This document shows positions 2,988-27,307 of a stretch of DNA of 43,713 nucleotides, piece after piece (within the stretch, counting starts at the first letter, position 1; each line of letters starts with the position of its first letter). Below the pieces are notes generated by a model, which worked only from the letters and a program-made list of their open reading frames with translations, was not told the origin of the DNA and made no database searches. A program made the translations under genes and the position numbers. The stretch is taken from IMG/VR virus record IMGVR_UViG_3300019755_000001, one strand, 5' to 3'. This DNA comes from a virus. Lineage: Duplodnaviria; Heunggongvirae; Uroviricota; Caudoviricetes.

Positions 2988-3193
2988 CAACTACATTTTA
3001 TTTGTATGGTATCGAACCTGAACGTCTTATGCAACTCAACTACTTCGAAGCAATCACTCTTAAGCATGAACTTGCTAAAGATCTGATAGCCGAGTTGTAT
3101 GAGGAGCCAATGGACAGCAGAGATGAGGACAGGATTGCGAAGGTACACAAAGCAATCAAACATAACCAAGACGTACTTAAGGAGCTTAAATGA
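2984..3193 (+). CDS. Hypothetical protein
   Basis: GTG overlapping the nrdB stop with GGGAG SD; alternative ATG at 2969. Confidence 0.6.
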   Translation: MTTTFYLYGIEPERLMQLNYFEAITLKHELAKDLIAELYEEPMDSRDEDRIAKVHKAIKHNQDVLKELK

Positions 3194-3621
3194 CAGTAAT
3201 TGACCACAACGGAACACAACTAACCGGTCATGCAGCAACTGCATACCATGCCGAGCACACCGAACTAGTCGAGGTTACGCCTTTTTTGCACTACGTTCAT
3301 CCGAGCCAAATAGCAGCTGAGCCAACTGTTTCTATGTCGGAAATCCCAACTTCATTGTATGATCAGCTCAACTACTTAGGGCTTATCCCATCTGACGTGA
3401 GAGGCACTCATGTGGGGCAATCTGATTATTCTAGCAAGTTAATCCAACCTTGGACCATCTTCTTAGGCAACCCTGACCTAAATTACATGGAATGTGATGT
3501 TATTAAGCGTATTATTCGTACTAACACACGGGACTCACGTAAGCAGGACTTAACCAAATGCAAGCACATCATCGATGAGCTTATTCGTCAAATCGATGTA
3601 AAGGAACAACATGATAGTTAA
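3190..3621 (+). CDS. DUF3310/SaV-like protein (T7 gp1.7-type nucleotide kinase family)
   Basis: HVGQSDY...IQPW...NYMECDVIK...QDLTKCKHII matches the H(Y)...IQP...GNVIKY...DLxKA pattern. Confidence 0.7.
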   Translation: MTVIDHNGTQLTGHAATAYHAEHTELVEVTPFLHYVHPSQIAAEPTVSMSEIPTSLYDQLNYLGLIPSDVRGTHVGQSDYSSKLIQPWTIFLGNPDLNYMECDVIKRIIRTNTRDSRKQDLTKCKHIIDELIRQIDVKEQHDS

Positions 3622-10920: not shown

Positions 10921-10988
10921 TGGAGTTTGTTCTATTATTTATCTTTGCTTGTATCATATTCGAACACCTCACCGGCCAGGCTACTTAG
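10920..10988 (+). CDS. 22-aa hydrophobic peptide
   Basis: ATG overlapping the previous TGA, AAGGGG SD; MEFVLLFIFACIIFEHLTGQAT. Confidence 0.35.
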   Translation: MEFVLLFIFACIIFEHLTGQAT

Positions 10989-13900
10989 CCACAGCTGGTG
11001 TTGTTATCATCTTCAGTATGTTGATTGGGTCTCCCCAACCACCTACTTTCCGTAGTATTGCATCTATTGGCGAGTAGTACTGATCCCATGGCGTTTCTGC
11101 GTCTATCCCGCTCACTCCTTGAGCACCTTCTGTTATGAACACTGTTCCTGCTTTTTTACCTAGCATCTTCATCATTGCTGGAAATACTCTGAAGAAGTAC
11201 TTTGTGAAGCTGAATATCAGCGTATCATTCGCATACTTTATCCCTCTATTATCCAAATAACCATAATTTACTGTTAACCCATCCACATAATTCAATACAT
11301 TTTGCTCTACTTGCTTAGCAGTAGCGTCTTTACCGCCCAACTTACCAGCAAACGTTTCATGCTGTTTATCTTTATCAGCACTATTGTAATCTGCCATCAA
11401 GTCTTGGTATATTATCATCTTTGTTATCACATCGGCATATGTCGTTAACTTCATTGTCGAATCATACAGTGGCGAGTCTTTTCGCACGTACAACGTATCT
11501 ATTACTTCTTTTATCCCAACTTTATCATTCTTTCTTTTCAGCTTGTCCAGTACAGCATCCAATTTACCCTCAATTATCCCTTTTTCATTCATCCATTCTG
11601 TGTTCAAATCTTCCAATATCGCAGTGTACTGCCCATCCTTCATCAACGGTTCAACTGGACTGTTTTTCATTCTGTTTTCTATGTTTTTCAACTCTTTTTC
11701 GTCTATTGTTTCACCAGCTTCTCTTCTGATTGCCAGCTTACTTGCCATTCTTCTATCGTCTTGGTATTTATTCATCTCCGACCACATGTCTGTGAATCTA
11801 CCCAAGTACTTCAGTGGGTCTTTACTCTTTGTGTGTTGCAGGGCAATTACCATATTCGACCCATTATTACCAATTATTGTCCCAGCTGTTTTTGCTACTA
11901 CTGCTTGTTTCCAGCCTTGTGTCAACTCCTGTACAATCTTCTCAGCCTTTCTCACCACCAACTGTCGTCTTTTACTGTTCTTTATCATCGGCAAGTTCAT
12001 TGCGCTCATGTCTTTGTATCCAAAGAAGTCTACTAACATACTTTCTTCTACCATCAATCTGCCACCCATTGTTTTATCAATCTGTGCTTTTAAGTAGTAC
12101 GGTATACTATCCCAGTATTCTTTTTCTTTGCCCTCTGAGTTTTCGCTTATCTCTACGAACTTATAATCTCTACTGCTCTCGTACTTTGTGTGGAACCGTT
12201 TGAAGTACGCTATTGCTTCCTTGTTACTTATCATTGCCTCTTGCTTGTGAGTCAAATCCGACACTGTACCACCAACTGTTGGTAATATGTCATCTTCTAT
12301 CTCCAAATACTTACTCTTAACCTCATGTGGTATTCTTACTCTGTAGTCATATATTTCATTCTTACCTGATCTTTCTGGTATTAACGCATTCTTTACTTTA
12401 GCTGTTTCTTTACTCATGTTATCTATTACTATCTCTGCTTCTACGTCTGTTAACTCGTTTACTTCCATTAGAATTCTTCTTAAGCTGTCACCTTCATTCT
12501 TCAGCTGTACCTTGCTCATTAGTCCTTCCGTATACCCAACTTCCATTGATTCGCCTACTACCAAGTACATATCTTTACCAACTGCTTCACTCAGTGCTTC
12601 CTGCTTACCCAAGTTACTCATTTTAGCTCTTTCCAAGCCCTTTAACTCTTTTTCTTCTACTATGTAGTATCTTTTGTTACCAATATACTCTTCTTGCTTT
12701 GCGCCTTTTATTTGGTACATAGAATCTCCACTATATGCATCTTCTAGTACTTTTGCTTCATTTGTTCTCATCAACTCCATTGCGTGGTCAAATCCTTTTG
12801 CCACATCCACTATTTTACCCTCTGGCGTTACCGACTCTTTTGTCAGTGCTTGTATTACCAAATCTTTATTTTCTTTTGCACTGTATCTTAATGCTATCAG
12901 CGACGCCATCTTGTCAATCTCTGCCACTGTCTTTTGGTTTTGTGTCTTTAGTAGTGCGTAACTGATCTGTGATGCATTCACATATCCATTTGCTGTGTCT
13001 GTGCTGTTATCTACTAGTAGTTTACCCAATTGTTCTGTTGCGTCCACTACCTGTTTACTATAGTTGTGTTTAAATATATTCAACTCAGCTGTTATTCTTC
13101 TCTCGTCTTGTAAGTACTTCAGTATTTGCTTACTACCGCCCAGCACTTTCGCATCTGTGTCTATCAGCACTCTCTTTGCTGCTCGTCTCTCACCTTTCGA
13201 TAGTCTACCCAATTCGTAATCTTTGTCCAGTACCTCAATCGTGAAGTGCTTTACTGGTGCTACTGCGTTCTCTACAAATGCTTTTGCGTGTCGGAACATT
13301 TGGTAGAACTTTGCCACATCTTTATTCGACATATCTCTTGTCACACTTGCGAATATGTTATTTTTCAATATGTAACTTTTTGCTTTTGCTATACCTCTTA
13401 TTTCCCATACCTTATCAATCGCTTTCTTCAGTCCACTTTTGTTCTCAGTTTGTCTGATGTAATCAGCGTACGACCTTTGTGCTTTCTTCTCTAGTGTTGT
13501 TAACTCCGCTACTTTACTATCAATCTTGTCTAATCTCTGTAGTAACCTCTCCGAGATAGTCATTTCTTCTTGTTTTCTGTTACTATGACCCAACTCCATT
13601 GCTTTATTTAACATGTCTATTGTTATTTCTCTGGCGTCCTTACCTTTGAACTTAGTGTTTCTGTACACTTGATTGATTATCTTAGCTATGTTGTTCCACA
13701 GCTTCTTCCATCTGCTTTTTGTACCTGGTTCTATCTTCATTGTACCCATTATTTGGTACTCTTCGAACTGATTTACTGTACCAAGTGCTTCTGCTAATTT
13801 CTCATTTGTTGTTGCTGCTGCCAGGAACTCACTTGCTTGGTCTGATGCTATCGGGTTTCTAAACACATATTCCCATCTCTCTTTAGCGAACGCCTTATCT

Positions 13901-14700
13901 TCTGCTGTCACATCACCATCTGGCAAGAATACTTCCCAGCTGATCTCTTTTGCTATTGCGTCTCTCATTCTCAGTATCTGTGATGTCAGTACTTTATCTC
14001 TTACCAGTACATTGTGTATTAGTATATGTTGTAATTCATGTGCTAGTATGTCTGAGTTGCTGTTGAATCTTGTGTTACCTTGTATTAACTTCAATTTACC
14101 ACTATCTACTGTAGCCTCACCTTTTGCGCCTTTATTGTCCAGGTCCTTGAACAGCTCTACGTCAATCTTCACGTCTTTACCAGCTTTCATCAGTACGTCT
14201 TTGTACATATTCATCACTCGCTTCAACTGCTCACTTACTGGCTTACCATCTGCTTCTGCAGCTACTGTTGCTAGTATGTCGATGTCATTTACTATCGTAC
14301 CACCCAATTGTCCCATGAACTCAGTATTTCTTTTACCCTTTTCACTACCCAGTGTGGCCATTGTTATTCCATCTGTCAGCATTCCTGTGTCTAGTTTCAG
14401 ATCATGTTCACCGTTTATTCTTACTTTGTTGTTCGACAACATCTCTGTAGTCTCAACCTTCACGTCAGCTTCTGTGTTAGTTTCCATGTCCTGTAGTGTC
14501 AGTGTCTTACCAACTAGCTCAGAGCCTCTATCGATGTACGGACTGACCCTTTTATCTGGGTCTGCATACATACCTTGCCGAGTAGCTCTGTTCACTCCTG
14601 CCTCAATCCGTCTTTTGTACTCAACTGCTTGTTTAGCAGTTTCTATTACTTCTCTAGCTTCATTTTCTTCGTTTATTAGTGTGTCTAGTTTACATCCCAT
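10981..14700 (-). CDS. Large virion/ejection protein equivalent to the C-terminal part of N4 vRNAP, with zincin-like HExxH domain
   Basis: LAHELQH (H221-H225) plus downstream SEFLA (E291); last gene of the late operon after the RNAP core; single Cys at position 3. Confidence 0.7.
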   Translation of the reverse strand: MGCKLDTLINEENEAREVIETAKQAVEYKRRIEAGVNRATRQGMYADPDKRVSPYIDRGSELVGKTLTLQDMETNTEADVKVETTEMLSNNKVRINGEHDLKLDTGMLTDGITMATLGSEKGKRNTEFMGQLGGTIVNDIDILATVAAEADGKPVSEQLKRVMNMYKDVLMKAGKDVKIDVELFKDLDNKGAKGEATVDSGKLKLIQGNTRFNSNSDILAHELQHILIHNVLVRDKVLTSQILRMRDAIAKEISWEVFLPDGDVTAEDKAFAKERWEYVFRNPIASDQASEFLAAATTNEKLAEALGTVNQFEEYQIMGTMKIEPGTKSRWKKLWNNIAKIINQVYRNTKFKGKDAREITIDMLNKAMELGHSNRKQEEMTISERLLQRLDKIDSKVAELTTLEKKAQRSYADYIRQTENKSGLKKAIDKVWEIRGIAKAKSYILKNNIFASVTRDMSNKDVAKFYQMFRHAKAFVENAVAPVKHFTIEVLDKDYELGRLSKGERRAAKRVLIDTDAKVLGGSKQILKYLQDERRITAELNIFKHNYSKQVVDATEQLGKLLVDNSTDTANGYVNASQISYALLKTQNQKTVAEIDKMASLIALRYSAKENKDLVIQALTKESVTPEGKIVDVAKGFDHAMELMRTNEAKVLEDAYSGDSMYQIKGAKQEEYIGNKRYYIVEEKELKGLERAKMSNLGKQEALSEAVGKDMYLVVGESMEVGYTEGLMSKVQLKNEGDSLRRILMEVNELTDVEAEIVIDNMSKETAKVKNALIPERSGKNEIYDYRVRIPHEVKSKYLEIEDDILPTVGGTVSDLTHKQEAMISNKEAIAYFKRFHTKYESSRDYKFVEISENSEGKEKEYWDSIPYYLKAQIDKTMGGRLMVEESMLVDFFGYKDMSAMNLPMIKNSKRRQLVVRKAEKIVQELTQGWKQAVVAKTAGTIIGNNGSNMVIALQHTKSKDPLKYLGRFTDMWSEMNKYQDDRRMASKLAIRREAGETIDEKELKNIENRMKNSPVEPLMKDGQYTAILEDLNTEWMNEKGIIEGKLDAVLDKLKRKNDKVGIKEVIDTLYVRKDSPLYDSTMKLTTYADVITKMIIYQDLMADYNSADKDKQHETFAGKLGGKDATAKQVEQNVLNYVDGLTVNYGYLDNRGIKYANDTLIFSFTKYFFRVFPAMMKMLGKKAGTVFITEGAQGVSGIDAETPWDQYYSPIDAILRKVGGWGDPINILKMITTPAVAK

Positions 14701-15340
14701 TCATACATTCCTTCAGTTCTTCGTGTCGATTATTCTTTTTATCTGTATCAGTTATGTTACCATCTTTTTGCTTAGTTTCTGCAACCGTTTTTACCTCTAC
14801 TTCACCATCGTCTAGCAGCATTTTGTGTCTCATTAGTGTATCTTCGAGCATCTTTGTTGTATCTTTACCCAACTTACTACCATCTGGATCTGCTGCATCA
14901 CCAATCACTATGTAACCTTTTGCCTTCATCAGTTCTTCCTTGAACTTAGGGTCATTTGCTACTACTTTAGTAACCAACTCTGCCATTAACTGCTTCTGCT
15001 CTAATACTGGTCTTGTTACTTTCTTTCCATTTACCTTCTTCGACTTCTGGAAATTGAACGCCTCAACCATGCTCTTATACCCTACCGTCTTGTTTGTTTT
15101 TGGGTATCTACTGTTCCACACATTCTGTAGGAACTGTACTTCGTTACTTAGTGTGTTGTTTGGGTGCATTACGTTAGTGCCATCAACTATTGTCACCTCT
15201 CCATCTGCTTTCAATTTAGTTATTTTCAGCCCTTGTAGTGCTTCATTCAGCTCTACTTGTCTGCCTGCTGTCTGATTGGCACCTACCTTAGCGTATCGCT
15301 CTGTAAGTGCTATCATTTCGTCTATTATACATTTGCTCAT
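14690..15340 (-). CDS. Middle fragment of split vRNAP locus, NADAR(YbiA)-like domain
   Basis: LSN...YKSMVEAFNFQK...LMAELVTKVVANDPKFKEELMK...D..D...LEDTLMRHK follows the NADAR consensus order; coupled by overlaps to both neighbours. Confidence 0.5.
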   Translation of the reverse strand: MSKCIIDEMIALTERYAKVGANQTAGRQVELNEALQGLKITKLKADGEVTIVDGTNVMHPNNTLSNEVQFLQNVWNSRYPKTNKTVGYKSMVEAFNFQKSKKVNGKKVTRPVLEQKQLMAELVTKVVANDPKFKEELMKAKGYIVIGDAADPDGSKLGKDTTKMLEDTLMRHKMLLDDGEVEVKTVAETKQKDGNITDTDKKNNRHEELKECMNGM

Positions 15341-18300
15341 TAGCAGTTCTCCTCTAGTCTTTGTGTCTGCATTTGGTCGAACTTAGTTTGCAGTACTTTT
15401 CTTAGTTTCTTATCTTCGATATTACCAAGTGTTTCATTTATTGATTGTAGTATACCATTTCTTCTATTTGAGTTACTTTGTTTCTTAGCTTTACTTCGCA
15501 AGTTTTGTGCGAATTGTCCAAGTACGTCGCCAAGCTCAGTTATTTGCTCATCTTTTGTATTTTCGTCGAACACAGCATTTACTGTCTCGTCACCCTTTGC
15601 TTCGTATGCTGGTGCAATGTCTGTAGCGTAGTATTGGTTCGATTTTACTTTCTTACCTCTCATTGCTACTCTGTTATCATGTATTTTATCAATCTCTGTT
15701 AACGGATCACCACTATTCAGTGCCTCAGCCACTTGGTTCACACTTTTCATGTCTGGATATACTCTCTTCATTGCACTCTCTGTCTCGTCGAAGTCAATCA
15801 ACTCTAGTGCTTGTTTGATGTTCAGTTTACCGTCTTTCTTTAGCTTCAGTAACTTCTGTACTGCATTACCAAGTATGCTGTGTCTCATGTTGATGTCCAG
15901 GAACGCTTTGTTCATTGCTTGTGCTTGTAGTATTCCTTTTTCACCATTTACTCCTAGCATCAATGCATCGTACACGTTCAGCACATCTTCTGTATTACCT
16001 TCAATCATTACTGTACCATCCACGTCATGGATTTGCACAACTCCAACGGCTCCAACGTTTGTTACTACATCTTTTACCTGGTTGCTTAGTGTTACTGCTG
16101 TACTTCCACTACCACTCTGGAACCCAGCATTTCTCACCTGTACTGACAGCTTACTTGTGTTTGCATCTGTTTTCTCCAGTTTTACTAATTCTTGTTGTCC
16201 ACCACTAGCATTGTTCGAGCTGTAGTATGTCCCTTCTTTCTGCATCTCAGCGTACACTTTGTCTAGTTGCTTTTGTGTTAACTGCGATATTCTCGTAGCA
16301 CCCAATTTAGCTAGTTTCTTATTCAGCTCTGTTCGGAACACCATGTAGTTCAGTTGCTCAATCAGCTTTACCGACTCTCTGAACTTCACTACTTCACCGA
16401 ACTCTGTTGTGAACGCATTTGCTAGTTGTTCACCAACTTGTTCATCTATTGCGTTGGTTAGTGTATTTACTGTCTCATCTTCCATATACCGTACTGTTGT
16501 GTCACCTTTAGCAACTCTGTCTGCTAGTTGTTTTTGTAACTTCGCTATTGGTTTTTTACTTGCTTCAGCTTCAGCCTTATCATCTGCCGCTTTTGCTAGT
16601 TTCTTAGTGTCTTTGTTGTACTTCAGCATCTTGTTTGCACTAGCAATCGTTTCATCGTACTTTGCTATCTCTTTTGCCAATTGTACTTCACTTTGTACTT
16701 TACCATTTTCTGGGTTGTATATCTTGTTCTCGTACTTAATCTCCAACTCAGCAGCTGTCTTACCTGTTAGTTTTTGCAGTGCATCTGTTGCACCTTTACT
16801 CATTCCTCCAGGGATGTAGCTATTACCAACTATCAGTGATCTTGCAGCAGCCTGACGGATGTTTGCCATTCCAGCACCGTATATGAATACCATTACTGGT
16901 CCCTTCATGAAGTTTCTCCACTTACCTCCTAGTACTTCTTCCATTGCTGCTAGTATCTCTGCTCCACCTTCTTGCTTCAGTATTCCCTCAACTACCATTG
17001 TTTCTGGTGTTTGGTATATATCTTTACCGCCTTGCTCTTTGTATTGTCCATGATTGTCGTACCGGTCGTAGTAATCATCAACGTACATCCCAGTTTTCGA
17101 TAAGTGCAGTTTTGTTGCTTCTGTGTACCCAATTTGCATTAGTGTCGCACTCATTCCGTTAGTAATCCCATCTATCTCTAGTGCCAAGTTAGTTGTTGCT
17201 ATACCGTGCTTTTCCAAGTCATTCAGCATTTGTACCAACTGTAGTGTGTGTAACTTCTCATCTATGCTATGTACTCCACCCCATTTGTTAACTGCTTCTA
17301 GCGTACCTTCTTTTACCATTTCTTCGAACTCTTTACTGCTGTATGTTACTTTTGCATTATCGTCGATAGTGAAGTATTTCTCACTCATCTTAGCTATTGA
17401 TGTAGCATCTTCCAACTTATCGATGTCCATGTCCAGTGCTTGTGCTGCACCAGCTCTTACGAACGCCATTGTCTCCTTGTCTACTTTACCAGTTTCTATT
17501 GTTGTTGTCATGTCTCCTGCACCTACCAGGAATCTACTGATCTTACTGTTTTGTGGGTTCATCATCATTGAGTCCATCATTGTTCTACCACTTTTTGTGT
17601 AGTCGTACGGGATGTAGAACTCACCAGCTCCTACCATCTCATACACTTCAATCATTCTCTCTATCTGCAACTCATCTGCTGTGTACTTAGCGTGCACCGA
17701 CTCAGCGTTCATTGTTGCTGTACTTGCCAGTATTGTGTCCAAGTCCCCCAGTATGTCCATTTTAAGCTTATCTACGTCAATTGTATCATCAGCTTTAGCA
17801 TATTGTCCCAGTACTTTGTGTGCCTGTTCACTGAACGTCCACGGTGTAGTACCCAATCTCTCTTGGTACTCAACTGCTGGATCACTCATCTCTGTGCTTG
17901 TCTTTCTTGCTTTCTTACCTTTCTTTGTGTGTATTGGTTCTGTGTCTATTGTTGGTGTTGTACTGCTTTGTGCGAACTCTAGTGTTGACCCAACTCTAGC
18001 GTATTCTGCCGGCACATCTTCCATCATCAGTACGCTGATTACTCCACCAGGTCTCTTGTCTTCACTTGGCTTCTCGAAGTCTATCATCCCGTGTTGCACG
18101 AACGCATTTTGTCTGTATACACCGTTCTTATGTGACGAGTGTGTTCTTAGCATGTTACTTAATACCATTGCTCCTAGTGAGTGCTCAATCGCGTTCTTAT
18201 CCTCAATTATTAGTGAATCGTCTAGCTTTATTCCCATCTCAGTCAGTAGTGTCTTACCTGCTGATTCATACAGGCTTGCTGCTGGTACTAACTCTCCTCG

Positions 18301-21300
18301 TTTTATCTTGCTTTCTAACATCTTCTTCGAACTATCTGGAACTATTCCTGTTGCTGGGAACAAGTTACCGAACGAACCATCTATCAAGTCGTGCATCTGG
18401 TCTCTGTTGTATGTCATCATTGCTTTTGCTTTACTGAACATTATCAGTGATGTTGTGTCCATTGCACCCTTTACCAACTCAGCATTTTCTGGGTCTGACA
18501 GTATGTCGTTCATTCCACTTTGTATCAGTATGTTCTTGTCGTTTAGCTCTAATTTTGCTAAGTTTGTTTGCTCTAGTACTGGTATGTTAGCTCTGTCTGT
18601 GCTGAACGTATTCAGTGTTTTCAATGCTGTTTTTACTCTCTCTACGCCTTTTTTACCAGCGTTTTGGATGATTCTTGGCATGATTTTCATCAATCCAGCT
18701 TCTTTATCTTTCATGTTCAATACTGTATGTGTAGTACTTACTCCGCCTGACTTCGACTTAGTTATTCCCTCAACTACCGGAATACCTAGTGCCTCAACCT
18801 TTACCATCTCCTGTGCTTTTTTCTTGATCTGAATGTCGGCTTTTACTGATTTTATCTTTTTGTCAACCTCTTTGATCTCTTCTTTAGCCAGTCTGATGTT
18901 CTCTTTTTGCTCTACTATTATCTTCTTCAATGAACCAATAACTTCTCTTGCTGTCTTGAACAACTTCCATACTCTTTGTACCAGTGTTTGTGGTGCTAAG
19001 TCTTTTTTGTTCTTAGCAGCTTTCAGCATCTTGCTAACCATTGTTAACCTGCTCTTGTGTTGGTCCATTCTACTTTGTATTGCTGCTTTGTCACTCTCTA
19101 GTTTACCAAGTTCTACTGTGTACTCATCTATGTCGTTTTGTACCTTCTCGATTATCTCATTTACCAACTCTGCGTCTAGCCTCTTACCAGCCTTCACTTG
19201 CACTATTTGCTCACCAACTTTCTTTACTGCTTCATCTATTGACTTCTCAGTCTTTTCTGTTGCTTCGGCCACTGTCTCTGCTGTTGTTTCTTTTGGCTTA
19301 GTAACTTCTCCGTCTTGCTTTGCTCGGATCTTCTCTGCTACTTCTACCTTTGTTTCTTGTGGTATTGTGCTATCGGCATCAACTTGTGCCATTGCTCTGT
19401 CCAAGTCACCCTCATTTTGCTCTATTACCTCATCTACGAATAGGTCTGGTGCACTCTCATCTGCTTGTGGTATGTTTGTGTCCTCGTACTTAGCTAATTC
19501 GGCTACTATTGTGTCCTGTTGTGCTGTATCAGCTGATTCTTTACTTAATAGCTCTGTGTACATCGATTTGTACTGTTTTAGCTCCAACTTCTCCTTGATA
19601 CTAGCAATCGCATCCATTTCACCATTCAGTGCTGTTTGTGCCTCTGTAATCTTCTCTAGTTGAGCCGGTGTCAAGTTACCAGATTCTATCGCAGCTTCTG
19701 CTATTTCTGCCATTCTGCTATTCTCTGCTTCTTGGCTCATTATGTAGTTGCTAATCTCTTGTGGTGTACGCAATCTCTTTACTTTTACTCGTTGCTTTTG
19801 ACCTTCAACTTTCTTCGATTGTGTTGTCACACCTTCCAGCTTACCAACTCTTGAGTGCATGAATGTTGTTAGTTCATTCACTACTCCACTTGCTGCATCT
19901 TCGTCTTTTGTTAGTGGGCTAACTATTGTCCCGACTACATCTGCTTCGTGCTGACGTAAACTCTTACCAACCGAGTTTCTTTTCACGAATCCCATAAACT
20001 CAATCTCATCTGCTACTTGTTGTGCTGTCTTTTTTGGTGATTTACCATCCTCATTTGCTTCACTACCAAGTTGTTTCTCATACAGTTCTAATCCATCTTC
20101 AACCTTGTTAGCATACTGTGTTACCGGCTCACTACCAAGCTTTCTCATGTCTTGTAGTACTGCTTTAACCTTCGCTAGTCCTTCAGCGTTTAATGGAGTA
20201 TTTTCGTTGATCTCAGCTTTCTGTTCATCTGTCATTGATTCAGTTAGTGTATCTATTTCTTCTGCTACTCTGTTGCTGTATATTTGCTCTATTTCTGACT
20301 GAGTAACCATCCCAACTTCTTGGTTTTTTATCATTTCACTCAGCATTGAGTCAACTTCAGCGTCTGTTGCAACTCTTACTTCGTCTTCACCTTTCGATGT
20401 CATGTGTCTTACAGCATCTCTTACCAATCCAGCATGCAGTACATCCATTGCTACTTTATCTGTTTTGTCTACACCATACACGTCTGCTATCTTTTCAGTA
20501 GCGTCTTTCATTGCATCAAGTGGTCTACCAGCATATCCTGACTTCTTCTGTATTTCCGGACTTGTCCATATCTCTGTAGCATATGCAGCAATATCATGTG
20601 CGTGTGCTTTTACTGCTTCTGGAGCAACTTCGTACCCTTCACTACCAACTGACTCCCATCTATTTTGTCTACCATCTCTTGTCTTTGACACATCAACATT
20701 TGTTGGGTCTGGTTGACTGTCTGTGATATTTACCAACTTCTCATTAGCTACTGTACCAACTGTTTTTGCCACGTCATACCCTACTTTTGGTGATGCTATT
20801 TGTGTACCCATTGCAGCACCTAGTACTCCTGCTACTTCAGCTTCTTTTATCTCGTCTTCTGTGAACCCTTTGTCGAATACTCTTGGTGTTTGTGCGGCTG
20901 TTTCAAGGAATGTTTGTCCTGCCTCAGTTAGTCCTTCTACTCCACCAGCAGCAGCAAGTCTTAACGGAGCTGACCCAATCTGTAGTATCCCTCTACCGTA
21001 TTGTTTAGCAAGGGTTCGTTTACCTGTTTGGCTCATGTTGTCTACTACTGTCTTTAGTGCTTTCTTAACTGGATTCATTCCGCTTAATGCTAGTTTATCA
21101 CCGAATCTATCCAAGTATGTACCAACAATACTTGACCCAGCACTTAGTACTTTCTCATTTGTTGTTAATTTTCTCTTTAATTTCGATTCTGCTATGTTAA
21201 TGTTATTATTTACGTTAGCTACGGCCATTGTACCAACACTTGCAGCTAGTGCAACCATTTCAGGTAAGCTCCCTGCAAGCACTTCAAGTGATCTTACATC

Positions 21301-22176
21301 CGTTACAGCTTTACCAAGTGCCGACATATATCCATCTGTTTCTATTGTGTCTTCTATCTCTTTACTCAGTTCTTGCACGTTTACTGCATTGTACCCAGTT
21401 ATCTTATCAGCAAACCCACTTTGTAGGAACTCTGTAGCAGCTTGTTGTATTGCTGTACCACTTTTCTCTACATCCTCAACCCCAATCAGTTGTCCAAGTG
21501 ACTCAATCCCCTCACCAACAAGTGAGCCTACTTTTACCCCTACATTGAACGAAGCACTACCAACTCCTCTTAGCGTGTTGTAATCTTCTACTGGTCTTAC
21601 TGTTTCTGTGCCACGTTTACTAGCAACTGATTCCATTTCTGCAGCGTACTCTGGGTCAGCCCATAGTCCTTTGCCTTGCTCTTTTGCTTGTAGCATCAGT
21701 TCTTGTGCTTCTGGTGTTTGATTATCGAATGCAGGTATTGCATACCCATCGGATACCATTTTATTCTGGTATGCCTTATTCTCTATCACGTCTCTACCAT
21801 GCACCCCAACTGTCGATGCTTCTGGTGTATTCTGATATACTGGTTGTTGTTTTGTATCGTCGAAGTGTGTTTCTTGGAAGCCCCCATCAATTCCACTGAA
21901 ATCCAGTGTACTGAACTCAGCCTCTAATTTAGCGGCTTCTCCAGCTGTTGCTTTACTTACGTGTCTACCAAGTTTACTTTCTCTTGCTTTGCTCAGTCTA
22001 TCAGCTTTTAGTGCAGCTTTTGGCATTTCTGGTGCATCAATTCCAGCTATTCTATATCCTTGTCCGTCTTGGTATACGGTATCAGCATCGTATATGTATG
22101 TATCTGTGTTGTATTTATTTGTTTGTGTAGTTGGTTCTGCGAACGCACTATCTAGTAATTCTTTTTGAGTTGGCAT
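15340..22176 (-). CDS. Virion-encapsidated single-subunit RNA polymerase (N4 vRNAP-like) with N-terminal SNase/thermonuclease domain
   Basis: Motif A LALEIDGITNG (~17154-17188), motif B WRNFMKGPVMVFIYG (~16876-16923), motif C NVYDAL (~15960-15979); SNase motifs YDADT, RIAGIDAPE, HGR, MVSDGYA, AKEQGKGLW in aa ~25-176. Confidence 0.9.
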   Translation of the reverse strand: MPTQKELLDSAFAEPTTQTNKYNTDTYIYDADTVYQDGQGYRIAGIDAPEMPKAALKADRLSKARESKLGRHVSKATAGEAAKLEAEFSTLDFSGIDGGFQETHFDDTKQQPVYQNTPEASTVGVHGRDVIENKAYQNKMVSDGYAIPAFDNQTPEAQELMLQAKEQGKGLWADPEYAAEMESVASKRGTETVRPVEDYNTLRGVGSASFNVGVKVGSLVGEGIESLGQLIGVEDVEKSGTAIQQAATEFLQSGFADKITGYNAVNVQELSKEIEDTIETDGYMSALGKAVTDVRSLEVLAGSLPEMVALAASVGTMAVANVNNNINIAESKLKRKLTTNEKVLSAGSSIVGTYLDRFGDKLALSGMNPVKKALKTVVDNMSQTGKRTLAKQYGRGILQIGSAPLRLAAAGGVEGLTEAGQTFLETAAQTPRVFDKGFTEDEIKEAEVAGVLGAAMGTQIASPKVGYDVAKTVGTVANEKLVNITDSQPDPTNVDVSKTRDGRQNRWESVGSEGYEVAPEAVKAHAHDIAAYATEIWTSPEIQKKSGYAGRPLDAMKDATEKIADVYGVDKTDKVAMDVLHAGLVRDAVRHMTSKGEDEVRVATDAEVDSMLSEMIKNQEVGMVTQSEIEQIYSNRVAEEIDTLTESMTDEQKAEINENTPLNAEGLAKVKAVLQDMRKLGSEPVTQYANKVEDGLELYEKQLGSEANEDGKSPKKTAQQVADEIEFMGFVKRNSVGKSLRQHEADVVGTIVSPLTKDEDAASGVVNELTTFMHSRVGKLEGVTTQSKKVEGQKQRVKVKRLRTPQEISNYIMSQEAENSRMAEIAEAAIESGNLTPAQLEKITEAQTALNGEMDAIASIKEKLELKQYKSMYTELLSKESADTAQQDTIVAELAKYEDTNIPQADESAPDLFVDEVIEQNEGDLDRAMAQVDADSTIPQETKVEVAEKIRAKQDGEVTKPKETTAETVAEATEKTEKSIDEAVKKVGEQIVQVKAGKRLDAELVNEIIEKVQNDIDEYTVELGKLESDKAAIQSRMDQHKSRLTMVSKMLKAAKNKKDLAPQTLVQRVWKLFKTAREVIGSLKKIIVEQKENIRLAKEEIKEVDKKIKSVKADIQIKKKAQEMVKVEALGIPVVEGITKSKSGGVSTTHTVLNMKDKEAGLMKIMPRIIQNAGKKGVERVKTALKTLNTFSTDRANIPVLEQTNLAKLELNDKNILIQSGMNDILSDPENAELVKGAMDTTSLIMFSKAKAMMTYNRDQMHDLIDGSFGNLFPATGIVPDSSKKMLESKIKRGELVPAASLYESAGKTLLTEMGIKLDDSLIIEDKNAIEHSLGAMVLSNMLRTHSSHKNGVYRQNAFVQHGMIDFEKPSEDKRPGGVISVLMMEDVPAEYARVGSTLEFAQSSTTPTIDTEPIHTKKGKKARKTSTEMSDPAVEYQERLGTTPWTFSEQAHKVLGQYAKADDTIDVDKLKMDILGDLDTILASTATMNAESVHAKYTADELQIERMIEVYEMVGAGEFYIPYDYTKSGRTMMDSMMMNPQNSKISRFLVGAGDMTTTIETGKVDKETMAFVRAGAAQALDMDIDKLEDATSIAKMSEKYFTIDDNAKVTYSSKEFEEMVKEGTLEAVNKWGGVHSIDEKLHTLQLVQMLNDLEKHGIATTNLALEIDGITNGMSATLMQIGYTEATKLHLSKTGMYVDDYYDRYDNHGQYKEQGGKDIYQTPETMVVEGILKQEGGAEILAAMEEVLGGKWRNFMKGPVMVFIYGAGMANIRQAAARSLIVGNSYIPGGMSKGATDALQKLTGKTAAELEIKYENKIYNPENGKVQSEVQLAKEIAKYDETIASANKMLKYNKDTKKLAKAADDKAEAEASKKPIAKLQKQLADRVAKGDTTVRYMEDETVNTLTNAIDEQVGEQLANAFTTEFGEVVKFRESVKLIEQLNYMVFRTELNKKLAKLGATRISQLTQKQLDKVYAEMQKEGTYYSSNNASGGQQELVKLEKTDANTSKLSVQVRNAGFQSGSGSTAVTLSNQVKDVVTNVGAVGVVQIHDVDGTVMIEGNTEDVLNVYDALMLGVNGEKGILQAQAMNKAFLDINMRHSILGNAVQKLLKLKKDGKLNIKQALELIDFDETESAMKRVYPDMKSVNQVAEALNSGDPLTEIDKIHDNRVAMRGKKVKSNQYYATDIAPAYEAKGDETVNAVFDENTKDEQITELGDVLGQFAQNLRSKAKKQSNSNRRNGILQSINETLGNIEDKKLRKVLQTKFDQMQTQRLEENC

Positions 22177-22219
22177 ATTGTGTCACCTTCAGTTTTTATT
22201 TTACTGAGTGTAGCACAAT
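22177..22219 (-). promoter_or_regulatory. Imperfect mRNA hairpin occluding the vRNAP Shine-Dalgarno
   Basis: AUUGUG CUACAC UCAGU [AAAAUAAAA] ACUGA AGGUGA CACAAU directly followed by the AUG. Confidence 0.55.
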
Positions 22220-22232
22220 TTGTCTTATGGTT

Positions 22233-23588
22233 TTATTTAGCGTTATCTTTTATGTATTTTACTACATCTTTAGTAACCTCTCCACTGAACCGAGGGGTCC
22301 AATCTTGAGTATTGAATGTTGTGATTATACTTGCCAAATCAGCGTCGCTCATCTTAACATCTTTTGCTGCTTTTGCTATTTTAGCTTGGTCTTTTTCGTC
22401 AATTGTGCCTAACCCACTATCGTACGCTTGTAGCGTTTTTGGCCCAGCCCCATATTTCTTTGGTGTCTTGAACGCATCCCCTCGGTTGGCATATTGTTTA
22501 GTGCCTTTTACGTAATCCAGTAGAGCAGTACCTGTTAACCCCTTTGGTATCTGAATGTTCAATGTTTTAGCTAAATTTGTACCGACTCTGTGGTCATCTT
22601 GTGTTTCTTTTTGCATCTTTTTAACCTTGAACAGCTGATCGAATGTAGGCCCTTTAACTTCTTTTTCAAGAGCTTTCTTTGCTGCTAATTTAGTGCTACC
22701 AGTCAAGTCTGTTCTATTCATTATAGAGTCTACTGACTTCTTTAACCACTCTGTTTGTGTCATATTACGTGTAACTGGTACTTGCTTAGTAACTGTCTCA
22801 ACTAGTTTTGGTACTGTTGGCACTTCTAATGTACCACGAACTCCACCTAGCCCTGATTCTCTCAGTGCAAGTGTATGTGCCTGTTCTGGAGTATACATTT
22901 GTTCACTTGGTTGTTTTTTACCTAACCATCTACCAAATACTGAATCTGCTTCTATATAGCTACCATCGGTATTTTTAGTGTACTGTGTACCAGGAACCCT
23001 AGGAGCAGCACCAACTTTTTGATTACTGTATTTATCGAACAGTTCAGCATATTTTGTAGAGCCTTCTTCTTGTTGTTGTAACCTTTTTGTATTTTTATCA
23101 ATAACTCGATTACGCAGGTTTTTAGCAAGTTCGACTTCTGCCTCATTGCCTTGTCTCGTTACTCTTTTCTCTGTACCAGTAATCGTTTTATCCTGATTTG
23201 CTTGTACCAATGCATCCCCAAGTAACTTATCTTGTTCTGCTTTATTTTCAGCTCTTGTGTTTGTGTTTATTGAGTTCTGCAACGTCACACCCTTAGCAAG
23301 TACACCAGCATCAACTCCAGCGAACTTCTTATCACTAACGTCCCCGCCAGCAATTACTGTTTTTAGGTACTCCGAGTTCAACTTGTCTTTAGCCTCAGCT
23401 TTGTTCCGTTGTTCTCTTTGTTCTGCTAATTCAACACCTTTTATCACTGTATTACCAAGTGTATTGAATACACCACGAGTTGCATCTGCACCGGCAATTG
23501 CTGCCTGTTGCGCTGACGCTGTTGCTCTATTAGCACCACTCAAGTAAGCATTTGCTTCTGCACTGTTATCATACCAACCTTTTGCCAT
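22233..23588 (-). CDS. Internal virion/ejection protein (N4 gp51 position)
   Basis: 451 aa, Cys-free, Ala/Gln-rich N-terminus, directly upstream of vRNAP. Confidence 0.6.
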   Translation of the reverse strand: MAKGWYDNSAEANAYLSGANRATASAQQAAIAGADATRGVFNTLGNTVIKGVELAEQREQRNKAEAKDKLNSEYLKTVIAGGDVSDKKFAGVDAGVLAKGVTLQNSINTNTRAENKAEQDKLLGDALVQANQDKTITGTEKRVTRQGNEAEVELAKNLRNRVIDKNTKRLQQQEEGSTKYAELFDKYSNQKVGAAPRVPGTQYTKNTDGSYIEADSVFGRWLGKKQPSEQMYTPEQAHTLALRESGLGGVRGTLEVPTVPKLVETVTKQVPVTRNMTQTEWLKKSVDSIMNRTDLTGSTKLAAKKALEKEVKGPTFDQLFKVKKMQKETQDDHRVGTNLAKTLNIQIPKGLTGTALLDYVKGTKQYANRGDAFKTPKKYGAGPKTLQAYDSGLGTIDEKDQAKIAKAAKDVKMSDADLASIITTFNTQDWTPRFSGEVTKDVVKYIKDNAK

Positions 23589-23592
23589 GCTG

Positions 23593-23940
23593 TTATCCTA
23601 CTTGTGGTATTGCAAACGGATTTTGTTGCGTGTTTTGTGCTTGTGGTATACCAGCCGCACCAGCTAACCCTGTTTGTACTGTTGTTTGTCCAGGTATCGG
23701 AGCAGCAGGCTTCTTGTTACCATACAAGCTGTTAGCTAACCCCATCTCCATCTCGTTTTGTGTGTTTTCCTTAGCTATATCTGCTTTACCGGCTAACTCT
23801 TTTGCGTAATTGAATTGGTCTCGTGCTAACTGATTCATCTTTGACTGTTGATCAGCCATCATTTTAGCACTCTTTACTCCACCATAGGCTTGTAACCCAC
23901 CACCTATTACTGATCCGGCTGCTTGTATCCATCCTGACAT
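23593..23940 (-). CDS. Small ejection/pilot protein (N4 gp52 position)
   Basis: Gly-rich amphipathic N-terminus MSGWIQAAGSVIGGGLQAYGG followed by a Gln-rich coil; Cys-free. Confidence 0.6.
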   Translation of the reverse strand: MSGWIQAAGSVIGGGLQAYGGVKSAKMMADQQSKMNQLARDQFNYAKELAGKADIAKENTQNEMEMGLANSLYGNKKPAAPIPGQTTVQTGLAGAAGIPQAQNTQQNPFAIPQVG

Positions 23941-24006
23941 ATCTATTCTCCTGTATTGGTTTTTGTTTTTATCTTACTACTAATTCACTTAATTTCAGCT
24001 TTGGGG

Positions 24007-25149
24007 CTATTTTTCCCATGGCTTCTTCCACACATTTTCCATTGATTTCCGTATATCTGTTAGCTCTTTTTCCATTCCACCTAAGCCAGCTTCAATTACA
24101 CTTAGCTGCTTCATTGTACTTTCATAGCTCTCTTTAGTTTTCATAGCGGAGGGCAAATCGTTGTAAGCATTTGCTATACTTTTGTACTGAGCAACTTTAT
24201 CATTGTATGTCTTTGTCTTGGTATTATACTGCTTAGTTAGCTTATTATAGTTTTGTAGGTTTCTCATTCTTATTGCTTCCTGTGGAGGCATTCCTCCACT
24301 GCTTTCACTCACATCTGTGTTTACAATATTCAAGTTGAATTTGTTTTCGAATAGCCCTCCTCCAGCTTGATCGGCATCTACGTGATTAATTAATTTATTT
24401 CCCTCACTTAACCCAAACTCACCACCAACACTTACTGCAAGTGAGTTCTTTTGGTCATATCCATACAAGTCACCACCTGAGTAGGTTTCGTTGTATATAA
24501 CTCCACCAGCCATCTTTTCAAACACCGTGCCATCCGCTACATCTATTAGGTTCTGATACCGTAGCCTAGCTTCTTGCTCTTGCGCCTGTATCAATTGTTG
24601 CATAGCAAACTGAATTGTTTTTGGGTTCATCAAGTGCGACAGTGCTCCATTTATTACACCACCTATTATTAATGAGATACCAAGACCAACAACTATCTCT
24701 GTTATGATTATCATTGACGCAGCAGCTACATAAGCTGCTCCACCGAGCCATGCACTGGCACCTGCAATAGCACCAGCAGACCAATCTGACATCGTTCCAG
24801 CAGAGAAGTAAGCTAGAGCTAGTGCTGCTACAATTACCCCAATGGCAGCAGTGCTGTACGCATCATCATAGAAAAAATCCTTTACTATTTTACCGAACCA
24901 ACTCCTGTCATCTAATCCAAGAGGTTTATACAAGCTTAAGTACTCCTGTTGTAGAAAGTCACCATGAGCGGTAACAACATCCGAACCGAATTCCTCAAAT
25001 GCACCTGACCAGCTATCTCCGCTAACAACACTACCAATAAACTTAGCAGGGGCTATAACATTCAACTGGAGAGACATCTTTATCTCAGCTACTACTAAAT
25101 CACCAACCTTCTCAAGTGCGGAGCCTACCTTTTTAGCTACCCCGCCCAT
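24007..25149 (-). CDS. Hydrophobic membrane-inserting virion/ejection protein (MGGVAKK... start)
   Basis: ATG 25149 with AAGAAGGG SD inside the 3' end of the GNAT gene; long multi-helix hydrophobic block in the N-terminal half; C-terminal coiled coil; Cys-free. Confidence 0.65.
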   Translation of the reverse strand: MGGVAKKVGSALEKVGDLVVAEIKMSLQLNVIAPAKFIGSVVSGDSWSGAFEEFGSDVVTAHGDFLQQEYLSLYKPLGLDDRSWFGKIVKDFFYDDAYSTAAIGVIVAALALAYFSAGTMSDWSAGAIAGASAWLGGAAYVAAASMIIITEIVVGLGISLIIGGVINGALSHLMNPKTIQFAMQQLIQAQEQEARLRYQNLIDVADGTVFEKMAGGVIYNETYSGGDLYGYDQKNSLAVSVGGEFGLSEGNKLINHVDADQAGGGLFENKFNLNIVNTDVSESSGGMPPQEAIRMRNLQNYNKLTKQYNTKTKTYNDKVAQYKSIANAYNDLPSAMKTKESYESTMKQLSVIEAGLGGMEKELTDIRKSMENVWKKPWEK

Positions 25150-25679
25150 TTTGACCAACCCTTCTTCCACTCGTATAGGTTCTCCCCAAGCTCTGACGGA
25201 ACTACACAGTTTTTGAACGTGTGTATATCTCTTGATTCTATCAGCATTGGTTTCTCCTTATTTAGTGATTTTATTATTGCTTTGAACATACTACCAACTA
25301 CTGGCTTACGTCTCAACTCTTCTTGCACATGGAAGAACGCAAACACGTTATAGCCTTCTGTTTCGAACGTTAATGCAACCCCAGCGTACTTTCTTGTTTT
25401 CTTATGTCTAATTATTGCACCATAGCCAAGAGCCACATAATTTTTCATCTCAGTCCTAGTTGGTAATTCCATCTCAACACCAGTATCTTTCAAGTATTTT
25501 AATACTTTTACTGTGTCTTTTGCACCCATCCTCATCAGCTCGTATTCATCATTACCAGTTGGCTCGAACTCAGGCTTGGCCTTTTGTTCTATCAATGGTT
25601 TTACCAACTTCTCAATCTCTTCAATTGTCGGTAGTGACTTTATTCGTTCTATGTTATTGTGTGCAATTGTATTTACCAT
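25137..25679 (-). CDS. GNAT-fold acyl/acetyltransferase
   Basis: YELMRMGAKDTVKVL (beta1-alpha1), YAGVAL, FFHVQEELRRKPVVGSMF (motif A-like VxxxxRxxxxGxxL). Confidence 0.65.
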   Translation of the reverse strand: MVNTIAHNNIERIKSLPTIEEIEKLVKPLIEQKAKPEFEPTGNDEYELMRMGAKDTVKVLKYLKDTGVEMELPTRTEMKNYVALGYGAIIRHKKTRKYAGVALTFETEGYNVFAFFHVQEELRRKPVVGSMFKAIIKSLNKEKPMLIESRDIHTFKNCVVPSELGENLYEWKKGWSKWAG

Positions 25680-25680
25680 A

Positions 25681-26547
25681 TTATACCTCTATTGTACAAC
25701 TTCCGTAGAAGTTCCCCAGTCCACTAGCATTTACCAAGTACTTGCCTGGCTCTTCTCTATCCAGGAGCATACACAGTTCTATTGCTGTGCTAACTCCTTG
25801 TGTGTGACCTATTTCTTTCTTGTACTCAATCAGCTCAACATCACCGTACATTTCTTCGATTGCAGTATACTCAGCCTCAGTGTTGTTTGGTGTCTGTGTA
25901 CCATGTGTTTTCACTGCTTTTATCTGCTCTTCGGCAAATGGTTTCATAGCCTTCATATATCCTTCTTTACTTACGAAGAACGGATTTTTGTCTGCATGGT
26001 ACACCCAATTCACTGTACTGATTTGTTCACCTCTTTGTAAGTGTAATATAGCAAACCCATCACTACAAGTTAGTGTTATCCCCATCTTCTCGAACAGCAG
26101 TCTTTGTGTTGGATCAGTCCAGTCTTCGGCATACACAATCACATCATCGAACTTATTGCTGTTTAGTAGCATCTCAGCTTCCTGTAGTGCGTGCATACTA
26201 GCCCCACAGGTATTGGCACATATACTCAAGTAGTCAGCACCGTATCGAGCAGCTACTTTACTTGCTATGAACCCAGCTTGACTTTGTACTGGCATTACTC
26301 CTTTTGGTATTGGTGCTGTATCTGTGAAATCCCTAGAGCAACTATGGTGTTCACTTGGACCAATTACGTACAACACAGCAGTTCTACCAGTTGGTTTGAT
26401 ACTGTTTACCTTGTCTTTATATGTCCGACTATTGTATGTGTTCATAAACGTTTTATCACGCTTCTCTAATGTTGATCCTATGTACATAGCCTTACCATCT
26501 TCACTTATTGTGTCTGGCAGTACGTAAACATAATTAACTACGTTCAT
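25681..26547 (-). CDS. Compact beta-ketoacyl-ACP synthase (FabF/FabB-like ketosynthase)
   Basis: Catalytic C114 (ANTCGAS), H215 (KTHGTQT), K243/H248 (YKKEIGHTQG), SDGFAIL, NNTEAE, NASGLGN, equivalent to FabF TACS, HGTST, KSMTGH, NSFGFGG. Confidence 0.88.
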   Translation of the reverse strand: MNVVNYVYVLPDTISEDGKAMYIGSTLEKRDKTFMNTYNSRTYKDKVNSIKPTGRTAVLYVIGPSEHHSCSRDFTDTAPIPKGVMPVQSQAGFIASKVAARYGADYLSICANTCGASMHALQEAEMLLNSNKFDDVIVYAEDWTDPTQRLLFEKMGITLTCSDGFAILHLQRGEQISTVNWVYHADKNPFFVSKEGYMKAMKPFAEEQIKAVKTHGTQTPNNTEAEYTAIEEMYGDVELIEYKKEIGHTQGVSTAIELCMLLDREEPGKYLVNASGLGNFYGSCTIEV

Positions 26548-26773
26548 GGTACTCTCTATACAAGTCTCTAATTGTGTATGTTTCGTAGTCTATACCATTA
26601 ACGTACTCATTGCCAAGTTCTACTACCTCGGACTCGAAGTAGGCCCAGAAGAATGCGTACGAGAACGAGTCCATTTCACTATTTATTAGCAAGTCGTCTA
26701 TATCCAGTATTTCAAGTCCATCCTGTTCTTCGATGAACTCATTTATCTGACTTAGGAATTGTTCTTCAGTCAT
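26534..26773 (-). CDS. Acyl carrier protein
   Basis: 79-aa very acidic helical protein (ATG 26773, AGGTGG SD); EMDSF with Ser36 at the phosphopantetheine position; C-terminal TIRDL (TVxDL motif). Confidence 0.8.
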   Translation of the reverse strand: MTEEQFLSQINEFIEEQDGLEILDIDDLLINSEMDSFSYAFFWAYFESEVVELGNEYVNGIDYETYTIRDLYREYHERS

Positions 26774-26782
26774 ACTAACCAC

Positions 26783-27307
26783 CTATGCCGCAGGTGATAA
26801 GTCTGGATTTAACGGAGCTGCCTCACCTGTTAATGCTGCGTTTAGGTTGAAGTACGTTGCCCACATTGTTGCTGTTGGTTTTAACCCTCCTGCTCCAACT
26901 GTACCAATCATATCACCCATACTATCCATTGCTTTAATTAATTTATTGTGCTCAACTTGCTCGATTAACTTCTCTTCTTGTGTCTCAACGTATGCAGTAT
27001 CTGCAACCATTTTGGCAATCTGTGAGTCTAGTATACCACCTTGTTTAGCGATGTTATCCACCTCTAGTTGGTATTTACCTTCTTTATCAGCTAATGCTAG
27101 TGCTGTTTGCATAGCCCCTGTTGTAATACTAGTTGTTATGTTTGCTATGAAGTTAGTAAGTAACTCAGCTTTTTCCTTCTCAGTAATGTTGAAGTTATTG
27201 AACTCATTCTGTACGAATGCTTTTGTTAAGTCATACGGACTGCCATCAGCTGTTGCTGCCGCCATTAGGTTTGTATATTTTACTAAATAGTCTTCTGTAA
27301 ATGCCAT
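26783..27307 (-). CDS. Virion structural protein (N4 gp54 position)
   Basis: 174 aa; synteny downstream of MCP/gp55-like genes. Confidence 0.5.
   Translation of the reverse strand: MAFTEDYLVKYTNLMAAATADGSPYDLTKAFVQNEFNNFNITEKEKAELLTNFIANITTSITTGAMQTALALADKEGKYQLEVDNIAKQGGILDSQIAKMVADTAYVETQEEKLIEQVEHNKLIKAMDSMGDMIGTVGAGGLKPTATMWATYFNLNAALTGEAAPLNPDLSPAA

Follow-up and report, generated by a model that had tools for sequence, protein, structure and literature searches.

The virion RNA polymerase (vRNAP) of the uncultured, marine, N4-like phage represented by IMG/VR record IMGVR_UViG_3300019755_000001 (Caudoviricetes) is encoded by three adjacent genes, and the only cysteines of the three products lie at the ends that face each other across the two gene junctions. 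The window, meaning the whole stretch of DNA that was analyzed, covers 43,713 nucleotides; the complete genome of the phage is 107.7 kb. A computed recount found exactly four cysteines in the 3733 aa of parts 1, 2 and 3 of the polymerase, namely, C2278 in part 1, C4 and C212 in part 2, and C3 in part 3. We propose that the facing cysteines would form head-to-tail disulfides, making the pieces one redox-cleavable chain for ejection. From the comparative evidence set out below, the probability of this reading is put at about 0.6.

The split open reading frames (ORFs) with cysteines only at their junctions had been described in a sequence-only reading of the window, and the observation is confirmed. 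The ORF coordinates agree with the lengths of 2278, 216 and 1239 aa, the TAATG at the first junction and the 11-nt overlap at the second, and the recount agrees with the four cysteines. The proteins of 451, 115 and 387 aa encoded directly upstream contain none, as had also been claimed. Cysteine makes up 1.5% of the rest of the phage proteome (genes called crudely on the complete genome of 107,713 bp), and about 58 cysteines would be expected in 3733 aa from the phage's own usage; the probability of four or fewer is about 4e-20. For four cysteines to fall so that each of the four facing termini has one no more than 5 residues away, the chance is about 8e-11. As a background, a cysteine occurs within the last five residues in 16 of 142 proteins encoded elsewhere in the genome and at positions 2-5 in 8 of 142.

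The junction cysteines, whose conservation the sequence-only reading had named as a point to check, were kept in every homologue found. All 21 stand-alone homologues of part 3, the conserved C-terminal domain (CTD), have a cysteine at position 3-5 (41-97% identity, 1204-1284 aa), and 19 of them have no other; C3 of part 3 is invariant among 18 aligned homologues. The rule was surveyed over 16 loci and 62,405 aa, comprising the loci of CTD homologues and further viral and metagenomic contigs. At 25 of 25 breaks a cysteine lies 0-4 residues from the C terminus of the upstream piece and another at position 3-5 of the downstream piece, and at 21 of the 25 no residue follows the upstream cysteine. 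In total, 49 cysteines were at junctions and 3 elsewhere. The number per piece is always 1-2-1 or 1-1, with one in the first piece, two in a middle piece and one in the last. Among the exceptions, the first vRNAP piece of L005 (2501-9997) begins with MC (Cys2), an orphan terminal cysteine, since the 444-aa protein encoded upstream has none; the others are C47 in the CTD piece of L005, C1867 in L011 and C1227 in P0005. Full-text literature searches found no description of the terminal-cysteine rule, which appears to be unpublished; the split polymerase itself was already known from the AD45 phages (2013).

The possibility that the stops are assembly errors was checked, and the stops are real. 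A relative with 86% DNA identity (L009) shares the three-gene layout (2353+213+1244 aa), and the polymerase is likewise split in relatives down to 27% protein identity. DNA-identical contigs are present in JGI, ENA and Logan (L001-L003, 100% identity), which were not counted as independent, as they may be reassemblies of one sample. In another contig with 86% DNA identity (L004, 1369 bp), the part 2 homologue is broken into ORFs of 48 and 163 aa in different frames. This extra break has no cysteine; it may come from misassembly of a low-coverage contig, or the module may be decaying. The fuller relative L009 has an intact 213-aa gene for part 2.

The junction sequences indicate how the pieces are made. 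The stop codon of part 1 (TAA, 15340-15342) has one base in common with the start codon of part 2 (ATG, 15338-15340). Parts 2 and 3 overlap at 14690-14700, where the TGT codon of Cys3 in part 3 shares one base with the TAA stop of part 2 and a TGA stands in the frame of part 3 immediately ahead of its ATG. Cys212 of part 2 is followed by MNGM before the stop and is thus not adjacent to it, with four further codons in between. The geometry of this overlap differs in the relative with 86% DNA identity, but the cysteine is kept. Among the window and its relatives, each of the 25 downstream ORFs has its own ATG, 1-3 codons ahead of its cysteine. A clear Shine-Dalgarno sequence is found at 18 of 25 junctions, often encoded by the Glu and Gly codons that precede the C-terminal cysteine, and several junctions have tandem in-frame stops or a spacer bearing its own Shine-Dalgarno sequence. 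The cysteine codons at the junctions are TGT in some cases and TGC in others. Given the separate start codons, the Shine-Dalgarno sequences, the tandem stops and the two polypeptides seen on gels of phage AD45-P1, we read the pieces as separate proteins made by coupled translation.

Two other readings of the split were considered. Frameshifting as a general route to a fused product is excluded by the tandem in-frame stops of several relatives and by the TGA before the ATG of part 3. A homing endonuclease or intein in part 2, whose frame differs from that of the flanking pieces, which are in frame with each other, was rejected because a domain of either kind was not found and neighboring pieces abut, with no additions of intein size.

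Table 1. Positions in the window of the vRNAP genes, their junctions and neighboring genes
Feature	Position	Strand	Description
vRNAP part 1, 2278 aa	15340-22176	minus	N-terminal domain and polymerase domain; lone Cys is C2278, the last residue (codon TGC, 15343-15345)
vRNAP part 2, 216 aa	14690-15340	minus	Variable middle module; C4 (codon 15329-15331) and C212 (codon 14705-14707)
vRNAP part 3, 1239 aa	10981-14700	minus	Conserved CTD; lone Cys is C3 (codon 14692-14694)
Junction 1	15329-15354	minus	Shine-Dalgarno-like GAGGAG (15349-15354), Cys TGC, TAATG, then AGC AAA TGT (Cys4)
Junction 2	14690-14713	minus	Shine-Dalgarno-like AAGGA (14709-14713), Cys212 TGT, part 3 ATG (14698-14700), Cys3 TGT
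Three Cys-free proteins (451, 115 and 387 aa)	22233-25170	minus	Directly upstream of part 1, in the place of N4 gp51/gp52-type ejection proteins
Acyl carrier protein-ketosynthase-GNAT cassette	25137-26782	minus	288-aa protein matches Ketoacyl-synt_C

The cysteines follow the breaks when the layout of the polymerase changes. Two-piece layouts of 2498+1210, 2424+1212, 2477+1260, 3072+1261 and 2600+1868 aa were found, as were three-piece layouts with a middle module (2549+430+1245, 2507+661+1260, 2433+877+1255, 2550+210+1212 and 2264+305 aa plus a partial third piece) and with a large middle piece (1881+1093+1284 and 1868+1023+1235 aa). The breaks fall at about three sites, two of them close to linkers 1 and 2, respectively, of the phage N4 enzyme and one within the beginning of the CTD; their mapping onto N4 was based on PHROG coordinates and on a MAFFT alignment that the scoring of Cys-Cys matches may bias. 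The break near linker 1, separating the N-terminal domain (NTD) from the polymerase (Pol) domain, is found in L008 and L024. Junction 1 of the window corresponds to the end of Pol, near linker 2, and junction 2 lies ahead of the conserved CTD, only roughly placed at about N4 residues 2220-2450. A variable module, 210-877 aa long and represented in the window by part 2, lies between the second and third of these sites; it is missing from some relatives, where one break alone parts Pol from CTD. The 1093-aa middle piece of L008 corresponds to positions 1038-1980 of the PHROG profile, or about 983-2108 when scaled to N4, and by this alignment would be nearly the mini-vRNAP or Pol domain, which in N4 comprises residues 1008-2104 (PMC13492108, PMC13434306).

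At least six changes of layout are seen on the CTD tree, and cysteine pairs are present at every break of each layout. Where two pieces are fused at one of the sites, that site has no cysteine, and the pairs come and go in the relatives as breaks move, arise or vanish. For example, the CTD genes of L012 and L023 are 89% identical in DNA, but L023 lacks the 661-aa module and has one cysteine pair instead of two.

The identification of the three genes as a vRNAP is based on profile matches to PHROG 2206 (virion RNA polymerase), with which N4 gp50 aligns end to end. Residues 1299-2211 of part 1 match profile positions 1086-1925 (E=5.8e-44), and residues 155-1193 of part 3 match positions 2280-3359 (E=1.1e-65). 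A CTD profile made from clade members aligned with residues 2477-3442 of N4; the part 1 profile did not match N4. With part 3 as the query, tblastn matched 237 Schitoviridae records at 20-23% identity, all of them single-gene polymerases. When a CTD protein of the clade (P0017) was searched by tblastn against the phage collection at E<=1e-20, the five matches were only to unsplit Schitoviridae, at no more than 22% identity. Neither part 1 nor part 3 had a sequence match in PDB, and no DNA relative of the junction region was found in the phage collection.

The window shares with N4 gp50 and gp71 of Pseudomonas phage DEV a homologous Pol domain and CTD in the order NTD-Pol-CTD, and with N4 and the Schitoviridae a cysteine-free interior and cysteine-free proteins encoded upstream. 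The sequence-only reading had stated that the N4 vRNAP is free of cysteine, and N4 gp50 (3500 aa), gp51 and gp52 indeed contain none. The unsplit vRNAPs of Acinetobacter phage XC38 and Vibrio phage 1.238.A contain none and one, respectively, and the replication proteins of the N4, XC38 and Vibrio 1.238.A phages contain 7-12. Cysteine suppression in this operon has been published across 191 Schitoviridae (PMC11445570). In contrast to the single 3500-aa, cysteine-free chain of N4, the window has three chains with four terminal cysteines and an extra 216-aa module at the linker between Pol and CTD, and its phage has a genome of 107.7 kb, against about 70 kb. An SU10-type portal is encoded among the virion genes upstream of the vRNAP genes; packaging of the window's vRNAP into the virion and its ejection are putative assignments from gene position. 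The proteins of 451, 115 and 387 aa had no PHROG or Pfam match, so their ejection role is likewise assigned by position.

A further likeness to N4 is an HExxH motif early in the CTD. In part 3 it reads HELQH (residues 221-225; 14026-14040, minus strand) and is found in most aligned homologues, with E222, Q224 and H225 invariant and H221 present in at least 90%. HELVH occurs at position 2228 of N4, HExxH at position 2052 of XC38 and two copies in Vibrio 1.238.A; in L006, L012 and L015, the full HExxH sits in the middle piece instead. Foldseek with the model of the N-terminal region of part 3 gave weak matches only (E>=0.05), mostly to HExxH zincin peptidases, which is a lead only. The motif parallels the zincin-like gp65 of crAss-like phages.

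With cysteines at the extreme tips, numbering 1-2-1, tied strictly to the breaks and purged everywhere else, the pattern argues for thiol chemistry that joins consecutive pieces in a line, for which a disulfide would be the simplest link. In the released, oxidized virion, two head-to-tail disulfides, C2278-C4 and C212-C3, would connect the three pieces, which would then behave like a single, nearly unbranched thread some 3700 residues long. This thread could leave the capsid in order through the tail channel of 30-35 Å, as is thought for the single-chain N4 enzyme. The reducing cytoplasm would cut the links, and the separation of the pieces would free the polymerase from the CTD, which is autoinhibitory in N4, and release the middle module. 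The published model of the N4 vRNAP is one of beads on a string, in which residues 907-1007 and 2102-2123 are flexible linkers; in this model, the enzyme exits loosely folded through a channel of about 35 Å, its NTD stays at the membrane, and its CTD inhibits the polymerase until displaced (PMC13434306, PMC13492108). Modeling of residues 1-320 of part 3 with AlphaFold2 (predicted local distance difference test [pLDDT] score, 75) gave a pLDDT below 50 for residues 1-5, which are followed by a long helix. These residues probably form a flexible tip, which would suit an accessible tether. A complex prediction of part 2 with residues 1-260 of part 3 scored 0.00, which counts neither for nor against the link.

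Several points weigh against the disulfide chain. The support for it is comparative throughout, and the disulfide is a bond that we infer. The pieces are made and packaged in the reducing cytoplasm, and no gene for an Erv1/ALR oxidase or a thioredoxin-fold protein was found in the complete 107.7-kb genome, a weak negative for Erv1/ALR, as the Erv1 control matched nothing anywhere; oxidation would then have to be spontaneous in the virion. The chemistry is the same at both junctions, so that bonds between parts 1 and 3, between two copies of part 1 or within part 2 could also form, and correct pairing would need docking. For AD45-P1, the gel conditions are not stated, and the presence of cysteine was read as evidence against injection of the protein (PMC3821669). 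Of the disulfide-stitched polyprotein proposed in the sequence-only reading, the real stops, the conserved cysteines and the fit of their count and terminal placement to a linear link stand; the bond and the time of its formation, the threading and the reductive release we infer.

The terminal-cysteine rule holds in two cultured phages as well. Alteromonas phages vB_AmaP_AD45-P1 to P4 have a vRNAP of two polypeptides, ORF127 and ORF126 (Garcia-Heredia et al. 2013, PMC3821669), and in AD45-P1, PCR confirmed the split and gels showed two polypeptides of 270 and 175 kDa (PMC3821669). They resemble the window's phage in being podoviruses of about 100 kb with terminal repeats and in having the vRNAP in adjacent, co-oriented genes with a break before the CTD, but there are two pieces instead of three, and the CTD tree places AD45-P1 on a long branch, apart from the 14 members of the window's clade. 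It was also absent from the five tblastn matches of P0017. In our translation of AD45-P1 (KF005317, L020), the 2481-aa piece has one cysteine, at position 2479 (...KHCKQ, then stop), and the second piece, of 1409 aa, begins with MTIC (Cys4). The published account gives 1404 aa for ORF126 and two cysteines in ORF127, compared with 1409 aa and one cysteine per piece here, and the GenBank record KF005317 has no coding sequence for the vRNAP region (15624-27306), just a misc_feature ("potential frameshift"). From the cysteines in ORF127, the same study concluded that the protein is not injected, and it does not mention their placement (PMC3821669).

The crAss-like Cellulophaga phage phi14:2 also has three adjacent giant virion proteins, including an injected RNA polymerase, with the same 1-2-1 count. 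The only cysteine of gp67 (1797 aa) is its last residue, C1797; gp66, the virion RNA polymerase (PDB 6VR4), has C3 and C2179 of 2180 residues; and gp65 has C3 only. The preprint on gp66 describes fused polyprotein forms in relatives and a zincin-like domain in gp65 and makes no mention of cysteine. The fold of this polymerase is unrelated (two-barrel, not T7-like), and no sequence homology was detected between the phi14:2 proteins and those of the window. If the device is the same, the phi14:2 arrangement would be a parallel solution.

Two-chain AB toxins offer an analogy. In these toxins, a chain crosses a membrane by a narrow path while one interchain disulfide holds it, and cytosolic reduction then frees it. 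The working principle proposed here, a single disulfide followed by reductive release, would be the same, and no membership in the group is claimed. The toxin chains come from a nicked precursor and their bond closes a loop, whereas the pieces in the window are separate gene products that would be joined tip to tip.

Other explanations of the terminal cysteines were weighed. They might link the pieces for co-packaging or for a fixed stoichiometry in the capsid rather than for threading and reductive release. The pairing rule fits this equally well; the N4 CTD is needed for encapsidation and is the only part that carries this function (cited in PMC3821669), and a split would strip the NTD plus Pol and the small module of the encapsidation signal. 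We consider this explanation unlikely, as the reducing cytoplasm, in which packaging occurs, is the least likely place for a disulfide, and as stubs of 0-4 residues are unneeded for a tether but expected if the joint passes a narrow channel. A clasp other than a disulfide, such as a metal ion shared by the paired thiols and nearby carboxylates, could form in the reducing cytoplasm, and acidic residues often precede the C-terminal cysteine (EC, EEC, DC and EGC). The acidic and Gly residues are, however, accounted for by the encoded Shine-Dalgarno sequences (GAGGAG and AAGGA), and each junction offers two thiols only, with no conserved His or second Cys, a site that would be a weak tether under ejection forces. 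Such a clasp is slightly less likely still.

A ribosome hop of the T4 gene 60 type, with the cysteine codons as take-off and landing sites, would give a fused chain with one cysteine per junction. A cysteine codon stands directly before the stop at 21 of 25 junctions, a second follows 11-32 nt downstream, often after a Shine-Dalgarno-like element, and both are decoded by one tRNA, in keeping with the matched codons of gene 60. Against this, the signals at the junctions, a downstream ATG at all 25, a Shine-Dalgarno sequence at 18 and tandem stops or Shine-Dalgarno-bearing spacers at several, are those of separate products rather than of a single fused one, and AD45-P1 virions show two separate polypeptides (PMC3821669). 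The take-off cysteine at junction 2 of the window does not adjoin the stop, and any codon pair would serve for hopping, yet it is always cysteine in proteins otherwise purged of it. Hopping is thus very improbable. The least probable explanation, raised in the sequence-only reading, is S-acylation of the terminal cysteines by the phage's acyl carrier protein-ketosynthase-GNAT cassette, which would make them membrane anchors for the pieces. The cassette belongs to the same virion operon and is found 3 kb upstream, the match of its 288-aa protein to Ketoacyl-synt_C passes the cut-off with 28.9 bits, and the MGC start of part 3 resembles a eukaryotic dual-acylation motif. However, the ketosynthase search was empty in two complete genomes with cysteine junctions, the record of L014 (terminal repeats, 100% complete) and AD45-P1, and gave a match in one of the five records searched, which argues against S-acylation as a general cause; it also leaves the facing pairs at breaks and the C-terminal-most position unexplained. 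The 82- and 180-aa ORFs that flank the ketosynthase gene had no Pfam match. A ketosynthase with 40% identity is present in the record of L016.

Part 2 is a variable extra module at the linker between Pol and CTD, not a conserved slice of the N4 chain. Sequence searches of 5.8 billion proteins and 1.84 billion representatives returned only part 2 itself and one relative with 80% identity. No match was found in Pfam or PHROG at normal thresholds, in PDB by profile search or in the phage collection by tblastn, and the AlphaFold2 model was unusable (mean pLDDT, 34). Middle modules of 210-877 aa sit at the same place in relatives. Comparison of part 2 with NADAR clusters gave an Atlas feature score of 0.88 and an Atlas structure TM score of 0.46, and the middle pieces of L010 (9275-9907) and L015 (7367-10000) had subthreshold matches to Pfam NADAR (E=1.6e-4 and 1.1e-5, respectively). 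Part 2 is thus a candidate for a degenerate NADAR/T4 gp30.3-like domain, an assignment that is rather doubtful at present; if it is true, an ADP-ribose hydrolase would be injected along with the polymerase.

In L016 (7847-9900), an extra N-terminal module is fused to the CTD (residues 55-258). It matches a region of Klebsiella phage Pylas that is annotated as RNA polymerase (33% identity, 2e-21) and also a crAss-like phage protein annotated as DprA-like. These matches suggest that the middle modules may be swappable cargo common to several phage groups.

For the passage of a protein of at least 3500 residues through a phage tail of 30-35 Å, two structural papers on N4 from 2026 propose a beads-on-a-string chain. 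Facing cysteines at every cut would mean that the continuity of the chain is itself under selection, and they would give a handle on the order of ejection and on how the polymerase is freed from the domain that inhibits it. The disulfide chain would overturn the 2013 reading of cysteine as meaning noninjection and would qualify the rule that ejected proteins must be free of cysteine. The idea is open to testing in cultured phages (AD45-P1 to P4 and phi14:2). Somewhat short of even odds, the arrangement may be a general "cysteine clasp" code of phages with giant cargo, evolved in parallel in N4-like and crAss-like phages, by which separately encoded proteins are linked at their tips through disulfides into a redox-cleavable polyprotein and into which new cargo modules with a cysteine at each end, such as part 2 (possibly a NADAR-type ADP-ribose hydrolase), could be spliced. 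If the disulfide chain is real, it would also provide a simple, natural way to load further proteins onto the injected string.

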